From the NCBI GenBank assembly GCA_964482765.1, contig CAYZYZ010000006.1, positions 1-24,000 on the forward strand: 24,000 nt of DNA. The letters run 5' to 3'. Shown piece after piece: positions 9,040 to 24,000 of the stretch; positions within the stretch are counted from its first letter, which is position 1; each line of letters opens with the position of its first letter. This stretch comes from an uncultured Candidatus Saccharibacteria bacterium. GTDB lineage: Bacteria > Patescibacteriota > CPR2_A > CG2-30-33-46 > CAYZYZ01. Made by a program: the position numbers and the translations under genes. The notes beneath the pieces are model-generated. The model saw only the letters and a list, made by a program, of their open reading frames with translations, did not search any database and was not told the DNA's origin.

Positions 9040-9901
9040 AATTTTTAATTCTATTTAGCACGGCTTTAATCGAAAAGTCAGGAGTCGAAGCACCAGCGGT
9101 AACGCCAACCGACTTAACCTTTAGAAACCAATTTTTTTGAAGCTCTTTTTCGTTCTCAATGTGATGAGTTAAAACTATCTCCTCACAGATTTCTTTTAGC
9201 CGTGTAGTATTAGAAGAATTCTTCCCGCCTATGACAATCATTATATCCACTTTCTTAGCCAGTTGTCTAGCCGCCTCTTGGCGCTTTTCAGTGGCGTCAC
9301 AAATGGTGTTGAAGATTTTTGGATTTCGATAATTTGCTCGCAAAAAGCTGGCGAGTTTTTCGAATTCTTCCAAATTCTGGGTGGTCTGGGAGATCAAGGC
9401 AATCTTTTTCAGCCCTAGGCTGATCCCGACCTTGCTTTGGCGAGCGTCGGGACTTCCTTTAATTATTTTTTTAACGTCTTCAATTCCTTTTATTATTATA
9501 GCCTTCGGCGCATAACTCTTTATTCCCTGAACTTCGGAGTGAATGGTTTCGCCAAAAATTAGAACTTTATACCCTTCTTTTTCTAATTTTTCGGCCAGCT
9601 TTTGAACTCTTTTAACATAAGGACAGGTAGCGTCGATTAGCTTGAAGTCCTTGGCTTTTAATTCTTCTTCCAGTTCTTTGGAAACCCCGTGAGAACGAAT
9701 TGCAACTTTGTCTGACTTTATATCTTCCAAATCACTGGCAACAAACACATTTCTTGTTTCCAGATATTTAATAAATTCGCCATTATGAACTAGGGGGCCT
9801 AAAGTAAAAACCTTCTCTTTACCTTTTTTAGAAAGAATAAGTTTAGAGGCTCTCTCTGCCCCGAAACAAAACCCTGCTTCTTTGGCAATCAAAATTTTCA
9901 T
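9032..9901 (-). CDS. ispH: 4-hydroxy-3-methylbut-2-enyl diphosphate reductase
   Basis: 289 aa with GFCFGAERA, PLVHN, ATCPYVKRVQ and SQTT motifs, plus the Cys ligand positions typical of IspH/LytB. Confidence 0.9.
   Translation of the reverse strand: MKILIAKEAGFCFGAERASKLILSKKGKEKVFTLGPLVHNGEFIKYLETRNVFVASDLEDIKSDKVAIRSHGVSKELEEELKAKDFKLIDATCPYVKRVQKLAEKLEKEGYKVLIFGETIHSEVQGIKSYAPKAIIIKGIEDVKKIIKGSPDARQSKVGISLGLKKIALISQTTQNLEEFEKLASFLRANYRNPKIFNTICDATEKRQEAARQLAKKVDIMIVIGGKNSSNTTRLKEICEEIVLTHHIENEKELQKNWFLKVKSVGVTAGASTPDFSIKAVLNRIKNYA
9424..9452. repeat. TCCCGAC-N15-GTCGGGA inverted repeat inside ispH
   Basis: 7-bp GC-rich arms at 9424-9430 and 9446-9452. Encodes SPDARQSKVGI. The arm sequence matches the CCCGAC palindrome family seen elsewhere in the window. 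Confidence 0.5.
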
Positions 9902-9920
9902 AGATGTTATTTTACCACAT

Positions 9921-9955
9921 ATCAGTAAACAATTAACAGTTAATAGATAACAGAA
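9921..9955. repeat. Period-7 array AACAGNN x5 (CTGTT heptad family, copy 2, opposite orientation)
   Basis: Plus strand reads ATCAGTA AACAATT AACAGTT AATAGAT AACAGAA. Lies between the terminator at 9963-9987 and the ispH start (9901). Confidence 0.75.
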
Positions 9956-20181: not shown

Positions 20182-20227
20182 AAAAGTATAACAAATATTC
20201 ACGATCGTGAATATTTGTTATACTTTT
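20182..20227. repeat. 46-bp perfect palindrome (possible terminator or operator) closing the pilin operon
   Basis: AAAAGTATAACAAATATTCACGA|TCGTGAATATTTGTTATACTTTT. I checked all 23 arm positions base by base. Confidence 0.9.
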
Positions 20228-20232
20228 CTCCG

Positions 20233-20385
20233 TTATTCTACTATTCGCGCAAATAGTTCCAAAAATAACCAAGAGCAAAACAAAAAAACCACAATCATTT
20301 CCAATAAAGTAAAACCAAAAAAATTTCTAGAAATTTTTTGAGATTTATTGAAACTGGTGGAAATTGTTGGAAATTTATTGCTCAT
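20233..20385 (-). CDS. 50-aa prepilin-like stub (leader plus hydrophobic N-terminal helix only); possibly a pseudogene
   Basis: Below the ORF-track size cutoff. My translation: MSNKFPTISTSFNKSQKISRNFFGFTLLEMIVVFLFCSWLFLELFARIVE. It contains the class III signal motif G|FTLLEM. Confidence 0.4.
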   Translation of the reverse strand: MSNKFPTISTSFNKSQKISRNFFGFTLLEMIVVFLFCSWLFLELFARIVE

Positions 20386-20394
20386 GATAATTAA

Positions 20395-21480
20395 TTATGG
20401 TAATAAACTTTGAGTCCAGGAATATATCCTTGAAGGGCTACCAGAGCCTAGACCGAGCTGGCTAAAAGTATTATTTCCGGTTCCCCAGACTGTACTATCT
20501 AATTTTAGAGCGAAGGAATGATATTGTCCTGCTGAGATGGCTCCAACATCTGTTAATGAGGTTTTAGTCCAGAAATATCTTGCAGTATCGTCACCTAAAC
20601 CTAGCTGGCCAAAGCCATTTTCTCCTGTTACCCAGACTATACCGTCGGATTTTAAAGCAAGGGAACGCTCCCCCCCTGCGGCGATAGCTGTAATTGCAGT
20701 CAAAGGTGTACTGGCAGCAGTCAAACCTTGTACTGTCCAAGAGTATGTTTGATTATTGTCACCTGAACCGAGCTGGCCATTAAGATTCCATCCAGTACCC
20801 CAGACTGTACCGTCGGATTTTAAAGCTAAGGAATGTTTAGATCCACCTGCCATGGCTGTGACTGCGGTTAAAGAAGTTTGTTTCCAGGATTTCTGATCTC
20901 TGTCATGACCTAGCCCGAGTTGGCCGTAATGATTATATCCTACTACATAGAGTGTGCCATCGAATTTTAAGGCTAAAGAGTGAAAGTTTCCAGCTGCAAT
21001 GGCTATAATTCCAGTTAATGAGGTTTTAGTCCAGAAATATCTTGCAGTATCGTCACCTAAACCTAGCTGGCCAAAGCCATTTTCTCCTGTTACCCAGACT
21101 ATACCGTCGGATTTTAAAGCAAGGGAACGCTCCCCCCCTGCGGCGATAGCTGTAATTGCAGTCAAAGGTGTACTGGCAGCAGTCAAACCTTGTACTGTCC
21201 AAGAGTATGTTTGATTATTGTCACCTGAACCGAGCTGGCCATTAAGATTCCATCCAGTACCCCAGACTGTACCGTCGGATTTTAAAGCTAAGGAATGTTT
21301 AGATCCACCTGCCATGGCTGTGACTGCGGTTAAAGAAGTTTGTTTCCAGGATTTCTGATTTTTGTCATGACCTAGCCCGAGTTGGCCGTAAAAATTATAT
21401 CCTACTACATAGAGTGTGCCATCGGATTTTAGGGCGAGAGAGTGATAAGCTCCTGCGGCGATAGCTCTAATTTTAGTCAC
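20395..21480 (-). CDS. Seven-blade RCC1-repeat beta-propeller protein with no recognisable signal peptide (GTG start)
   Basis: Seven repeats of the form HSLALKSDGTvwxxGxNxxGQLGLG. GGAG lies 7 nt upstream of the GTG. Overlaps the upstream gene by 8 nt. Confidence 0.85.
   Translation of the reverse strand: MTKIRAIAAGAYHSLALKSDGTLYVVGYNFYGQLGLGHDKNQKSWKQTSLTAVTAMAGGSKHSLALKSDGTVWGTGWNLNGQLGSGDNNQTYSWTVQGLTAASTPLTAITAIAAGGERSLALKSDGIVWVTGENGFGQLGLGDDTARYFWTKTSLTGIIAIAAGNFHSLALKFDGTLYVVGYNHYGQLGLGHDRDQKSWKQTSLTAVTAMAGGSKHSLALKSDGTVWGTGWNLNGQLGSGDNNQTYSWTVQGLTAASTPLTAITAIAAGGERSLALKSDGIVWVTGENGFGQLGLGDDTARYFWTKTSLTDVGAISAGQYHSFALKLDSTVWGTGNNTFSQLGLGSGSPSRIYSWTQSLLP
20552..21440. repeat. 462-bp direct tandem duplication inside the RCC1 gene
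   Basis: 20552-20897 matches 21014-21359 with no mismatch that I can see. Scattered mismatches follow for ~80 bp. The two identical antisense track ORFs (20537.. and 20999..) confirm the 462-nt offset. Confidence 0.9.
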
Positions 21481-21871
21481 AAAATAGCTCCAACTTTCTA
21501 TCTACACCAAAAGCTCTACCTTTAATAGTTACCTTTATATTCCCAGTACCTGGCTCATATCTATAACAAATGTTGTTTAAAGGAGGATCAAGGCAGACTG
21601 TGGCACTGCCAACTGGCCCTGTTTTAAGTTTCAGCAAAGCCTCTTCTGTTCCTGCTTCAGCCGCATTATAGGCAGCTTGGGAATTGGCAGCCTCTCCGCC
21701 TGTTTTTAGTTCCGTTACTATAAGTTGGGCTATTGCCAGACCAACGGTCAAAATAATAGTGGAAATAATAACCGCAAAGAGAAGAGTTGATCCAGCACTC
21801 CGACCCGGGTCGGAGTGCTGGGTTGAACCTCTTTTGGAAAATAATTTAGAAATTTTGGATTTATTTTTCAT
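21473..21871 (-). CDS. PilX-like / pseudopilin-like small membrane-anchored protein
   Basis: N-terminal anchor STLLFAVIISTIILTVGLAIAQLIV followed by AANSQAAYNAAEAGTEEAL, which resembles the PilX N-terminal domain pattern. Confidence 0.55.
   Translation of the reverse strand: MKNKSKISKLFSKRGSTQHSDPGRSAGSTLLFAVIISTIILTVGLAIAQLIVTELKTGGEAANSQAAYNAAEAGTEEALLKLKTGPVGSATVCLDPPLNNICYRYEPGTGNIKVTIKGRAFGVDRKLELFCD
21792..21821. repeat. 30-bp perfect palindrome CCAGCACTCCGACCCGGGTCGGAGTGCTGG inside the PilX-like CDS
   Basis: Checked base by base. Encodes TQHSDPGRSAG in frame, immediately before the hydrophobic anchor. Confidence 0.9.
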
Positions 21872-21951: not shown

Positions 21952-23655
21952 CTAAAATTTTCTATAAGATCCTCCGTTGTTATATACGCCAATATAAAAC
22001 CATCCTCCCCAAATGATCATCTCTTTTCCTGTCCATATGGCAGTATGCTGACGCCTTGCAGCGGGGACGTTAGTAGCTGATGTTGGAATCCAAGTATCGT
22101 TACATGGGTTGTAGCGGGAACCATCGTTTACATAATCAGTGCCACTCGCGCTAGCATTTCCTCCCCAGATGATCATCTCTGTACCGGTCCAGACAGCAGT
22201 ATGAAGCTCTTTGCCAGGTGGAGCGCCGGTGGTGGTTGTTGGGGTCCAGGTATTTGTGGCGGGGTTGTAGCGGGCACCGGTATTGAGCGCTGCCCAAGTC
22301 TGTCTAGATCCACTGCAAGGAGGAAGACAACCCCATCCTCCCCAGATAATCATTTCTGTTCCTGTCCAAACAGCGGTGAAATCTTCTCTACCAGAGGGAG
22401 CATTAGTGATTGTTGTTGATGTCCAGGTATTAGTAGTTGGGTTGTAGCGACCACCGGTATTTAAATAACCACTGCCTCCCCAGATGATCATTTGATTAGC
22501 TGTTGCGGGATTACCGGTTTCCCCGGTCCAAACAGCAGTATGTCCGTCTCTAGCAGAAGGAGCATTGGTAAAGGATGTTGAAGTCCAGGTATTTGTGGCA
22601 GGATTGTAGCGGGCACCTGAATTAGTTTGACCACCTGCATTATATCCTCCCCAGATAATCATTTCTGTTCCTGTCCAAACAGCAGTATGATAGGTTCTAG
22701 CAGAAGGAGCATTGGTGGTGGATGTTGGGGTCCAGGTATTTGTGGCAGGGTTGTAGCGGGCACCGTCATTATAATAATCCCCGCCATACGCGCCACCATT
22801 TCCTCCCCAGATGATCATTTGATTAGCTGTTGCAGGATTACCGGTTTCCCCGGTCCAAACAGCAGTATGTCCACCTCTATAAGAAGGGGAGTAGTAGGCG
22901 GGTAATATCCGGACCCAGGTATCAGTAGTTGGATTGTAGCGGGCACCGTCATTATAGTCACCATTTAATACGCTTCCTCCCCAGATAATCATTTCTGTAC
23001 CGGTCCATATGGCAGTGTGTCTATATCTACCACCCGGATCTCTGACGCCTGTTGTTAAATTTGGTTTGTCTGTTGCCCAATTCCAAATTTTCTCTTCGTA
23101 ATAATTCCTTTTGGATACTATACTACTTAAGGTGATTTTGGGTTTGGTGCCTGTTCTGTCTGAGGCTTCTTTGGCTTCGGCTTCAATAGTTAGTTTAAAG
23201 AAAGGTTGAATATTATTAGAGCAATCCGAAAAAACATTGTCATCCACATTGAAGGTAAGAATGTTAGTAGAGTCGGTGGTTAAGTTTTGGCTGGTTCCTC
23301 CTGGGGGGCTGGTCATTATGATTTTCCCGCTCGAAAGCTTAAATTCAATCTGTATATTGTCTTTGCTTGTGGTTGTAATGATGTTATTTGTTTTATCTAC
23401 ATTAGTAGTTTTTGCCAATCTTGCTTCTCTGGAAATAGTCTCTAGAGCATACCTTGCATCTTGCTGAATCTTTCTGATGTTGTTGGTTTTTTTGGCTACA
23501 TTGTAGATAGTAATAAAAAGCTCACTGGTAGCTGTCAGAACTAGGGCAAAAACAGCAATAACCATAATCATTTCCAACAAAGTAAAACCACAGTTCGCAG
23601 AACTGGCGCGAAAAGGAACGCGGAACCGACGCCTAAATTTCTCTCGCTGTATCAT
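21952..23655 (-). CDS. Prepilin-type (PilW/GspJ-like) minor pilin fused to a seven-blade Kelch-like beta-propeller
   Basis: Leader MIQREKFRRRFRVPFRASSANCG|FTLLEMIMVIAVFALVL, then QQDARYALETISREARLA (PilW/GspJ-like). Seven repeats follow of the form RYNPxTNTWT...HTAVWTGxEMIIWGG. AAGGAG lies 6 nt upstream of the ATG. Confidence 0.85.
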   Translation of the reverse strand: MIQREKFRRRFRVPFRASSANCGFTLLEMIMVIAVFALVLTATSELFITIYNVAKKTNNIRKIQQDARYALETISREARLAKTTNVDKTNNIITTTSKDNIQIEFKLSSGKIIMTSPPGGTSQNLTTDSTNILTFNVDDNVFSDCSNNIQPFFKLTIEAEAKEASDRTGTKPKITLSSIVSKRNYYEEKIWNWATDKPNLTTGVRDPGGRYRHTAIWTGTEMIIWGGSVLNGDYNDGARYNPTTDTWVRILPAYYSPSYRGGHTAVWTGETGNPATANQMIIWGGNGGAYGGDYYNDGARYNPATNTWTPTSTTNAPSARTYHTAVWTGTEMIIWGGYNAGGQTNSGARYNPATNTWTSTSFTNAPSARDGHTAVWTGETGNPATANQMIIWGGSGYLNTGGRYNPTTNTWTSTTITNAPSGREDFTAVWTGTEMIIWGGWGCLPPCSGSRQTWAALNTGARYNPATNTWTPTTTTGAPPGKELHTAVWTGTEMIIWGGNASASGTDYVNDGSRYNPCNDTWIPTSATNVPAARRQHTAIWTGKEMIIWGGWFYIGVYNNGGSYRKF

Positions 23656-23803
23656 AAACTCTCCTTATTATCTGGACTAAAGCTTGCTGATAAATATTTT
23701 CTTTATGCTTATTTCTAAACTGCTTGTAAATTTCAAATGCTCCGCCCCTGATGGTATATGATTCTTGTTTGTATAAAAAATTGCCTTGTTTGTTTTGCTT
23801 CAT
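23633..23803 (-). pseudogene. N-terminal fragment of a GxxExxY-family protein (56 codons)
   Basis: My translation: MKQNKQGNFLYKQESYTIRGGAFEIYKQFRNKHKENIYQQALVQ..., which resembles the N-terminus of that family. The frame then runs into the start of the pilin-Kelch gene and stops. Confidence 0.3.
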
Positions 23804-23902: not shown

Positions 23903-24000
23903 TTACTTTCCCCAGTTTGTTAAAATAGTTGAGGTTTCCACTTTGTTTGTAGACCCTTTTTCTACCCATGTTACTTTTACTGTAACTTTTCTTTTATCAG
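23903..24000 (-). CDS. 3' end of a further pilin/pseudopilin-like gene (5' part outside the window)
   Basis: The frame from 23998 reads DKRKVTVKVTWVEKGSTNKVETSTILTNWGK then stop. This beta-strand pattern is typical of minor-pilin C-termini. Weak evidence, based on only 31 aa. Confidence 0.35.
   Translation of the reverse strand, partial: DKRKVTVKVTWVEKGSTNKVETSTILTNWGK

Follow-up and report, generated by a model that had tools for sequence, protein, structure and literature searches.

The window (the whole 24,000-nt stretch that was analysed) contains near its end a gene that combines a type IV prepilin and a Kelch beta-propeller in a single intact open reading frame (ORF) of 567 amino acids. 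The gene lies on the minus strand between positions 23655 and 21952, in agreement with the coordinates of the initial annotation. Its parts and the features around it are listed in Table 1.

Table 1. Features of the pilin-Kelch gene and its surroundings, in the order of transcription
Feature	Position	Strand	Remarks
3' end of upstream minor pilin (PilV/GspI position), cut by window end	23903..23998	-	Translates to DKRKVTVKVTWVEKGSTNKVETSTILTNWGK*
Shine-Dalgarno sequence AAGGAG	23661..23666	-	5 nt before pilin-Kelch ATG; direct sequence reading
Leader peptide, aa 1-23 (MIQREKFRRRFRVPFRASSANCG), last residue Gly-1	23587..23655	-	N_methyl and TIGR02532 above cut-offs
Mature pilin module, aa 24-186, ending ...SKRNYY	23098..23586	-	AF2, homology, gene order in relatives
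Junction, aa 187-207 (EEKIWNWATDKPNLTTGVRDP)	23035..23097	-	pLDDT <50 (AF2)
Kelch beta-propeller, aa 208-567, seven blades	21955..23034	-	Pfam, AF2, Foldseek
GETGNPATANQ loop 1, aa 269-279, between strands A and B of blade 2	22819..22851	-	
GETGNPATANQ loop 2, aa 378-388, blade 4	22492..22524	-	
PilX_N-like minor pilin (GspK/PilX position), 132 aa, without Glu+5	21473..21871	-	
RCC1 propeller ORF, 361 aa, 7 repeats	20395..21480	-	Pfam WD40_RLD E=1e-77
Prepilin stub, 50 aa (GFTLLEM...)	20233..20385	-	Remnant of another pilin gene
Perfect 23+23-nt hairpin, then T run	20182..20227	-	Likely operon terminator

The genes on either side have counterparts in type IV pilus (T4P) gene clusters of related genomes. 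The product of the partial upstream ORF matches minor pilin 2 of clusters L083 and L084, and the PilX_N-like product matches the last gene of the same two clusters (E=8e-9 and 6e-13, respectively), with the Pfam PilX_N model itself scoring 17.8 bits, under its cut-off of 25.5. The PilX_N-like gene has 80% DNA identity to metagenome contig L081. The RCC1 ORF begins with a GTG codon that overlaps the stop codon of the PilX-like gene and has no signal peptide, and in L081 and L082 the PilX-like pilin and the propeller form a single ORF; from this arrangement, the RCC1 ORF probably represents a C-terminal module that became separated from the PilX-like pilin. The prepilin stub shares a 34-nt repeat (91% identical) with the 5' end of the gene for the pilin-Kelch protein. 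The neighbourhood shows decay in the form of the PilX-like/RCC1 split, the pilin stub and a truncated nuclease gene.

No gene for pilus assembly machinery, pilD included, was found in the window, which otherwise holds housekeeping genes; the contig runs 456 bases past it. No tRNA or Rfam family was detected in the window, and an apparent 1.5-kb gap (421-1952) corresponds to a PBP2-like ORF running off its end. The sequence had been taken to come from a small-genome episymbiotic bacterium. Its origin in the Patescibacteria/CPR is supported by NusG, which is 86% identical to that of a MAG and 76% identical to that of Candidatus Azambacteria. Among the 80 best NusG loci, every match with a name carries either a CPR name or that of a misfiled MAG. 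No member of the pilin family occurs within 10 kb of nusG in these 80 related genomes and synteny with the closest genome (L001) stops at secE, so the position next to secE is specific to this lineage.

The prepilin signal and the pilin module

The predicted protein begins with MIQREKFRRRFRVPFRASSANCG followed by FTLLEM, which provides Gly-1 (G23), Phe+1 (F24) and Glu+5 (E28) ahead of a hydrophobic helix; the residues after G23 are FTLLEMIMVIAVFALVLTAT, and AF2 predicts a helix from aa 26 to 80. Two models match this region above their curated cut-offs: Pfam N_methyl (PF07963; 25.0 bits against 21.2, aa 20-42) and NCBIfam TIGR02532 (26.5 bits against 16.3). The protein therefore carries a class III signal after a 23-aa leader, as had been read from the letters. 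With N_methyl and a Kelch propeller in one ORF and a two-module structure model, it is a modular pilin sensu Raynaud et al. 2021, and the HMM E-values indicate that neither the prepilin nor the Kelch pattern arose by chance. Domain HMMs and the predicted structure together confirm the fusion that the initial annotation had proposed.

The structure prediction suggested there was carried out with AF2 using an alignment (A6) of 59 stand-alone pilins, 3 pilin-Kelch-like bridge rows and 9 Kelch proteins, which has a depth of only about 9-13 rows over most of the propeller. It was used in place of the mixed alignments A2 and A5, which put pilin rows on the Kelch region. The resulting model has a mean pLDDT of 85.9 (37 when the full protein was folded from its single sequence), in which confidence is high for the pilin body and the propeller and low for the junction. 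In the pilin module, a helix of about 55 residues is followed by eight beta-strands, and block-mean pLDDT is about 86-98 over aa 31-180 except for a loop at aa 142-145. A pilin body is thus present as first described. Its last residue is Y186, so the mature body has about 163 aa and not about 190.

A word-index search for homologues of the N-terminal 206 aa returned no match, and an exhaustive search of cluster representatives was therefore needed. This search found the pilin module to be homologous to 1167 cluster representatives, mostly stand-alone pilins of about 165-200 aa. The body belongs to a large Patescibacteria family of minor pilins of about 170-200 aa. In relatives with complete type IV pilus clusters, the genes are ordered pilM, pilO, pilB, pilC, major pilin, pilD and minor pilins 1, 2, 3 and 4 (the set is also given as pilMNO-pilB-pilC-pilA-pilD), and these clusters contain Peptidase_A24. 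The family member is the third of the four minor pilins (the GspJ/PilW position) in clusters L083, L084 and L088, and the fourth, directly downstream, is PilX_N-like.

The PilW/GspJ type assigned in the initial annotation is supported by this gene order (third of four, upstream of a PilX_N-like gene) but not by family HMM cut-offs or by profile alignment. NCBIfam ComGF scored 25.2 bits on the full-length protein (25-28 overall; cut-off 80) and GspJ 16.8 bits (17-19 overall; cut-off 64.85), and no PilW model in Pfam or NCBIfam matched the protein or its family, some members of which are labelled PilW by JGI. When compared with Escherichia coli GspG, H, I, J and K using hhalign, the N-terminal helix alone was aligned and the classes were not discriminated; the alignment to GspJ covered 36 helix residues and was no better than those to GspG, H or I. 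A sequence profile search of the PDB likewise aligned the N-terminal helix alone, without class discrimination. The carrier thus resembles GspJ, PilW and ComGF in its place in the H-I-J-K order, directly upstream of a K/X-type gene, and in its comparable size, with a helix and a two-sheet-sized beta body in the AF2 model, but differs from them in that no family model reaches its cut-off.

The Kelch propeller and the junction

The C-terminal region matches PF24681 (E=1.2e-49, 169 bits, cut-off 50), PF24981 (E=1.2e-33, 117 bits, profile positions 8-280 of 289) and Kelch_1, Kelch_2, Kelch_3, Kelch_4 and Kelch_6, all above their Pfam cut-offs. It contains seven 'HTA[VI]WTG...MIIWGG' units starting at aa 213, 263, 323, 372, 426, 485 and 537, and six 'RYNP..W' units with GGSYRKF at the C-terminus. 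In the AF2 model, this region is predicted to form a closed propeller of seven blades with four strands each and block-mean pLDDT mostly 80-97, falling to 66-79 over the final ~17 residues. Foldseek matched it with probability 1.0 to the Kelch domains of KLHDC3, KLHL20, KEAP1 and LZTR1. These results agree with the seven Kelch-like blades noted initially, as does the presence of the identical GETGNPATANQ insertion in two blades (aa 269 and aa 378).

The propeller is about 50% identical along its whole length to Kelch proteins of Verrucomicrobia, Acidobacteria, Planctomycetes and others, which share the 'HTAVWTG...MIVWGG...RYNP..W' repeat consensus. These proteins differ from it in being 580-990 aa long with more than seven repeat units, and none has an N_methyl signal. 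They also have an A-B hairpin of 2 residues, as seen in 1265 repeat units of 120 sequences (the protein itself and its 119 closest Kelch homologues), whereas the 13-residue A-B hairpin that occurs in two blades here was found in the pilin-Kelch protein only among the 120 sequences scanned. The nucleotides under the two loops are 92% identical over 93 nt. No other pilin fusion was present among the 120 best full-length homologues, a list dominated by Kelch proteins. Recent horizontal transfer of the Kelch module, considered on account of a GC bump, was rejected because the excess lies in codon position 2 (0.63) and not in GC3, which is 0.384 in the Kelch part, as in the rest of the genome.

The junction may be either a flexible linker or, by the register of the blade alignment, a segment in which IWNWAT supplies the closing strand of blade 7. 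The junction of pilin body and Kelch repeats is present on one contig only (cluster P0001, with one member on one contig). Two independent ENA assemblies (L085 and L086; 98.4-99.9% identical) have the 3' end of the Kelch gene joined to the PilX-like gene, and both start inside the Kelch repeats.

Modules carried by related pilins

Pilin-propeller fusions were surveyed among relatives, as the initial annotation had recommended. Extra modules were found in 19 of the 150 closest cluster representatives of the pilin family, and 11 of these are propellers (six RCC1, three Kelch-like, one BNR/Ycf48-like and one NHL). The remainder are Laminin_G_3, CBM96, Fib_succ_major (two), F5/8-C and vWA (three).

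Metagenome contig L081 is 97.6% identical to the window over 591 nt that cover the region upstream of the gene and its first ~82 codons, and carries an RCC1 propeller in the place of the Kelch propeller. The leader peptides are identical, 79 of 82 residues of leader and helix are identical, and so are 34 of 40 residues at the end of the body. Variable segments lie between the constant 5' end and the conserved body end, and the modules are wholly different. Homology stops exactly at Y186, which places the swap point directly after the pilin body (RNYY). These comparisons indicate that the C-terminal module of the carrier pilin is exchangeable, with relatives bearing an RCC1 propeller, lectin, CBM or vWA module.

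Proposed role, competing explanations and precedents

We consider it probable that the protein is a modular minor pilin in the type IV pilus of a Patescibacteria bacterium, with the propeller as a tip-displayed adhesin module. From its signal sequence, the protein would be cleaved by prepilin peptidase after Gly23. Its long hydrophobic helix and small beta-sheet body (aa 24-186) would then join the filament like any pilin, and the C-terminal seven-bladed Kelch propeller (aa ~190-567) would be carried along on the body. In the systems that have been studied, the minor-pilin set primes assembly and remains at the pilus tip. Because the body occupies the GspJ/PilW position of a four-gene minor-pilin set, the propeller would most likely be located at or next to the tip, as a putative binding module for a glycan or protein ligand on the host-cell surface. 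Exchange of modules on one carrier is what is expected of a specificity determinant.

Other explanations were considered. The filament could be a Com-like DNA-uptake pilus or a secretion-type pseudopilus, with the propeller as a DNA or substrate receptor or a plug, given that the best sub-threshold NCBIfam matches are ComGE and ComGF (in 45 and 44 of 46 members) and that DNA uptake has been considered for one of the two pili of TM7x (PMC11623550). We regard this as unlikely: the ComGE and ComGF matches are far under their cut-offs and cover little past the N-terminal helix, the family's modules (lectins, CBMs, vWA and propellers) are typical of glycan or protein binding, and the relative cluster L084 encodes an additional T2SSE ATPase, perhaps one of the PilT type that drives retraction. 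It is slightly less likely still that the pilin-Kelch protein is never polymerised and that its helix anchors the propeller in the cytoplasmic membrane as a cell-surface receptor of a cell without an outer membrane. It is established that pilins sit in the membrane until they are assembled, and the predicted flexibility of the junction in AF2 would suit such a role, but Gly-1, Glu+5 and the conserved body are kept, a conserved pilin body would be superfluous for a mere anchor, and the family has a fixed position inside T4P operons.

An enzyme shown on the pilus, for example a sialic-acid mutarotase (NanM-like) or an oxidase, is very improbable. Many of the closest Kelch homologues are labelled 'N-acetylneuraminic acid mutarotase' by JGI, but this is the generic COG name for Kelch proteins, and the weak matches to the NCBIfam NanM/YjhT models are below cut-off (26.3 against 416 bits and 25.1 against 256), the listed matched stretches covering aa 276-340 only. 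We give equally little credence to an artefact, in which the 5' end of a pilin gene and a Kelch gene were brought together on a chimeric contig, or to a dead gene in a decaying, unexpressed locus. The single contig with the junction, the breaks of other assemblies within the Kelch repeats and the truncated or split adjoining genes all point in that direction. On the other side, the junction lies in unique sequence and not in a repeat, its swap point (after RNYY) is shared with the pilin-RCC1 fusion of L081, analogous fusions are common in the pilin family, and the gene has 567 intact codons, a strong ribosome-binding site and a GC3 that matches the genome.

The closest precedent for a tip-displayed propeller of this kind comes from Nanosynbacter lyticus TM7x (Saccharibacteria), whose minor pilin PilX2 bears a heptabladed RCC1 propeller. 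PilX2 was proposed as the tip adhesin, and its deletion lowers host binding (PMC11623550). PilX2 and the pilin-Kelch protein are both Patescibacteria T4P minor pilins with a C-terminal seven-bladed propeller. They differ in the propeller (Kelch here, RCC1 in PilX2) and in the carrier: the direct counterpart of PilX2 in the window is the PilX_N-like gene together with the RCC1 ORF, whereas the Kelch carrier is the preceding pilin in the GspJ/PilW position. The canonical Gly-1/Glu+5 signal is present here, whereas PilX2 was reported without a predicted PilD signal (PMC11623550). The tip adhesin PilB of Streptococcus sanguinis carries a vWA module (PMC8179133). PilB and PilC (lectin) of this species share the design of a small pilin with a C-terminal module and predicted tip exposure. 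An InterPro inventory of modular pilins comprises >1200 proteins in 264 architectures, many from CPR (PMC8179133, PMC9934059). It includes the Kelch architecture IPR012902-IPR006652 once and several RCC1 architectures, and none of its propeller architectures was studied there (PMC8179133, PMC9934059). The present protein differs from PilB, PilC and the inventory in its module and in its carrier, which is of a distinct Patescibacteria family. The statement in the initial annotation that no characterised example of the fusion was known is out of date in view of PilX2 (PMC11623550) and the Kelch architecture in Raynaud et al. 2021. The pilin-propeller type is already known, and the evidence for module swapping is the more interesting result.

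The PilY1/PilC proteins of type IVa pili also place a beta-propeller at the tip, through the minor-pilin complex, and are encoded in the minor-pilin operon. PilY1 is a non-pilin that docks non-covalently and has an IPR008707-type propeller, whereas the Kelch propeller belongs to the same polypeptide as its pilin and is thus covalently linked to it. No PilY1/PilC family was found among the Pfam matches to the pilin-Kelch protein with E up to 1. Identity as a PilY1/PilC tip adhesin was rejected on this result and because the protein is itself a pilin.

Patescibacteria live attached to host cells and their mode of host recognition is largely unknown; the sole genetic study to date implicates a minor pilin that bears a propeller. 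The present locus suggests that a propeller can also be carried by another minor pilin of the tip set, that two or three tip pilins with modules can be encoded in a single operon, and that near-identical strains differ in their module. If modules set host specificity, host range could be predicted from the modules in metagenomes, and the host receptor could be probed directly with recombinant propellers (here aa ~187-567).

More speculatively, the locus may be a recombination hot spot at which tip-adhesin modules are exchanged between strains as cassettes, as a host-range switch of episymbionts; this would resemble the swapping of receptor-binding proteins in phages, and we put it forward as a tentative possibility. 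Pilin 5'-end stubs have been left behind at positions 20233-20385 of the window and as a duplicated leader in P0131. In two lineages, a small nuclease gene is located immediately upstream of the pilin gene. In the window and in L081 it is a truncated gene of the PD-(D/E)XK/GxxExxY type, and in L084 it is of the GIY-YIG type.

A prepilin and a Kelch propeller in one protein

The prepilin–Kelch fusion described in the initial annotation is encoded by an open reading frame of 567 aa with an ATG start, present on the minus strand at the position given there, and AAGGAG is located 5 bases before the ATG. The class III prepilin signal is directly visible at the N-terminus (MIQREKFRRRFRVPFRASSANCG/FTLLEM), and both Pfam N_methyl (25.0 bits; cut-off 21.2) and NCBIfam TIGR02532 (26.5 bits; cut-off 16.3) score above their cut-offs. 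The C-terminal two thirds match the propeller models PF24681 (E=1.2e-49) and PF24981 (E=1.2e-33, profile positions 8-280 of 289) from Pfam. Seven units were counted, as annotated, with seven occurrences of HTA[VI]WTG..MIIWGG, six of RYNP..W and GGSYRKF at the terminus; the counted blade number could be influenced by repeat assembly. The protein has the defining features of a type IV pilin, a modular pilin and a Kelch propeller.

Structure prediction using AlphaFold gave a useless model from the single sequence (pLDDT 37) and a mean pLDDT of 85.9 (pTM 0.67) with alignment A6, which comprises 59 stand-alone pilins, three bridge sequences and nine Kelch proteins. In its Kelch part A6 has a depth of only about 9-13 rows for most of the region, and in the pilin region nine rows contribute noise. 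The model has a two-module fold, with a helix at aa 26-80 followed by eight strands up to aa 181, a region of low confidence (aa 187-207), and a propeller of seven four-strand blades, but with only three strands in the last blade. IWNWAT (aa 190-195) is in register with the outer 'xxW' strand preceding each blade and therefore could close blade 7, although its placement in the model is low-confidence. A Foldseek search against the PDB retrieved the Kelch domains of KLHDC3, KLHL20, KEAP1 and LZTR1 (probability 1.0).

The identical GETGNPATANQ insertions noted initially are located at aa 269 and aa 378, and the surrounding 93 nt are 92% identical. Across 1265 repeat units from 120 scanned sequences the corresponding hairpin has two residues, and the 13-residue form was found in the pilin-Kelch protein only. 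Blades 2 and 4 have this 93-nt segment in common, and blades 3 and 5 are approximately 80% identical in the adjoining parts. These similarities suggest a recent event inside the propeller, either duplication of two blades or gene conversion.

An artefactual fusion or a dead gene is less well supported than a genuine gene. Two independent ENA assemblies (L085 and L086; 98.4-99.9% identical) begin within the Kelch repeats and run on into the PilX-like gene, so the Kelch 3' end and the operon linkage are reproducible. The junction between pilin body and Kelch is seen on one contig only; the sequence there is unique and the boundary is the same as in the metagenome contig L081. The rise in GC content at 22001-23000 is due to codon position 2 (0.63) and GC3 of the Kelch part (0.384) matches housekeeping genes, therefore composition gives no indication of a recent foreign origin.

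Features of the pilin region, in 5' to 3' order of the minus strand
Feature	Coordinates	Strand	Remarks
End of pilin gene		minus	ends …VTVKVTWVEKGSTNKVETSTILTNWGK, then stop
GxxExxY/PD-(D/E)XK_3 fragment	23633-23803	minus	truncated
Pilin-Kelch gene	23655..21952	minus	
5'-end segment resembling the stub	23557-23590		
Similar segments of blades	22468-22887		
PilX_N-like gene	21871..21473	minus	132 aa
Palindrome	21793-21820		28 nt, perfect, GC-rich
PilX-like/RCC1 junction	21473-21491		8-nt overlap
RCC1 propeller ORF	21480..20395	minus	361 aa, 7 repeats
Prepilin stub with hairpin	20182-20385	minus	50 aa; then perfect hairpin (likely terminator), then secE
Stub segment	20284-20317		34 nt

The carrier pilin family and its modules

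When the N-terminal 206 residues were searched exhaustively, 1167 cluster representatives were recovered at E≤1e-3, the majority of which are stand-alone pilins of 165-200 aa with the C-terminus '…LQTTvSsRxY'. Named members belong to Patescibacteria (Paceibacterota, Yanofskybacteria), and some carry a PilW label from JGI. On long contigs of relatives, the family member is observed within a complete type IV pilus cluster, in the order pilM, pilO, pilB, (pilT), pilC, major pilin, pilD, minor pilin 1, minor pilin 2, the member of the carrier family and a last gene. The last gene in comparison loci L083, L084, L087 and L088 is PilX_N-like or matches the PilX_N-like gene of the window, which itself matches the last cluster gene, as the upstream pilin fragment matches minor pilin 2.

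The PilW/GspJ-type body proposed initially agrees with this gene order, which corresponds to the GspJ/PilW/ComGF position, but all such sequence models fall far below their cut-offs. Alignments of the pilin body in a PDB profile search were confined to the N-terminal helix, as were hhalign comparisons with E. coli GspG, H, I and J, which all scored alike. Membership of the GspJ/PilW family cannot be shown by sequence. The protein is not a member of the PilY1 or NanM families.

Among the best 150 representatives, 19 are long proteins. Pfam modules on the same carrier are RCC1 (6), Kelch-like (3), vWA (3), Fib_succ_major (2), and BNR/Ycf48-like, Laminin_G_3, CBM96, F5/8 type C and an NHL propeller inserted inside the pilin body (1 each). 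The pilin bodies of the closest homologues are 54%, 54% and 45% identical; the modules present there are a lectin, a propeller of the NHL type and a CBM. The Kelch-like relative P0154 has the same operon position, behind pilC and the major pilin. L087 (1-3415), the contig that carries P0121, the closest homologue, has three successive genes of this kind: one ends in an RCC1 propeller, another in a Laminin_G_3 lectin, and the remaining one encodes a PilX_N-like protein whose CBM_4_9 match is weak and below the cut-off (21.2 bits; cut-off 25.9), giving two, possibly three, tip pilins with a binding module.

Module exchange is seen most clearly in L081, which has 97.6% DNA identity to window positions 24000-23410 (upstream pilin end, nuclease fragment, leader and helix). 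Leader and helix share 79 of 82 residues with the pilin-Kelch protein, after which the sequences diverge, and identity is regained at the end of the pilin body (81%; 34 of 40 residues). Homology ends exactly at …RNYY (Y186), where L081 continues into an RCC1 propeller instead of Kelch, and returns in the PilX-like gene (80% identity). This pattern is a recombination mosaic with a fixed module boundary, and the modules of the carrier pilin are interchangeable.

Another relative, P0131, starts with a degenerate copy of the pilin-Kelch leader and motif (MIQREKFRHKFCVPFCVSLAYLGFTPLEK), and an intact second prepilin N-terminus comes next, in frame. This looks like another relic of 5'-end exchange. 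The GxxExxY/PD-(D/E)XK_3 gene ends exactly at the onset of the pilin-Kelch ribosome-binding site, identically in L081 (283-453), and in the unrelated cluster L084 the corresponding place, after minor pilin 2 and before the family member, is taken by an 87-aa GIY-YIG gene (9688-9951). Recombination could be linked to small nuclease genes adjoining the variable gene.

Proposed role at the pilus tip

Minor pilins are known to form complexes such as GspI-J-K and FimU-PilVWX-PilY1. From this knowledge and two experimental precedents, PilD would cleave the pilin-Kelch prepilin, which would then join the priming complex and stay at the pilus tip, where the propeller would bind a host surface ligand. 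The protein would work like PilX2, PilB and PilY1. S. sanguinis PilB is a tip adhesin with vWA (PMC8179133). In N. lyticus, loss of the minor pilin PilX2, which bears a heptabladed RCC1 propeller, cuts host binding by half and does not abolish the filament (PMC11623550).

The modules are varied, and nearly all have folds that bind glycans or proteins, which is consistent with the module being a specificity determinant; a propeller acting as a displayed enzyme is less well supported. The same holds for a membrane-anchored surface receptor and for a filament used in DNA uptake or secretion. No type IV pilus machinery genes of the source genome are visible within the window.

The initial annotation knew of no characterised example, and no study of such a protein turned up in our literature searches either, but the architecture class is already published: an inventory of modular pilins lists 264 architectures, of which many come from CPR, and N_methyl-Kelch appears there once and N_methyl-RCC1 several times. 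We did not find described a carrier family at the GspJ/PilW position with a fixed swap point, different propellers on near-isogenic alleles, or a single operon in which several tip pilins bear modules.

Neighbouring genes

The PilX-like and RCC1 ORFs overlap at GGAG-CTA-TTTT-GTG-AC-TAA, and removal of one T yields a single ORF (…RKLELFVTKIRAIAAGAYHSLAL), as is present in L081, L082 and TM7x PilX2. The T4 junction is also found in L085 and L086 and is therefore not a one-off error. It resembles the prfB +1 frameshift site in its SD-like GGAG, 3 nt and UUU U, but the next codon is UGU rather than a stop. The junction may mark a gene that has split, or else reflect translational coupling or frameshifting. 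The RCC1 ORF of L085 (790-1413) has 4 repeats and 207 aa, a difference from the window of one 462-nt unit, copies of which are 88-100% identical; either the copy number truly varies or the repeat has collapsed in the assembly.

The stub (leader and GFTLLEMIVVF…) is what remains of a further pilin gene; its hydrophobic helix goes on in another frame and the sequence leads into a perfect 23+23-nt hairpin. Its 34-nt segment is 91% identical to the pilin-Kelch 5' end, so that a 3.3-kb block is flanked by direct repeats. The palindrome (CAGCACTCCGACCCGGGTCGGAGTGCTG) sits where the PilX-like gene codes for its leader and, compared with L081, adds some 12 residues (QHSDPGRSAGST); it is single-copy in the window and also present in L085 and L086.

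The rest of the window, on the minus strand throughout, consists of housekeeping genes (PBP2, mreBCD, proS, rseP, ispG/H, uppS, frr, pyrH, tsf, rpsB, thyX, rplA, rplK, nusG, secE). NusG is 86% identical to that of a MAG and 76% to that of Candidatus Azambacteria, and every named genome among its best 80 matches is either from Patescibacteria or a MAG misfiled under another name.
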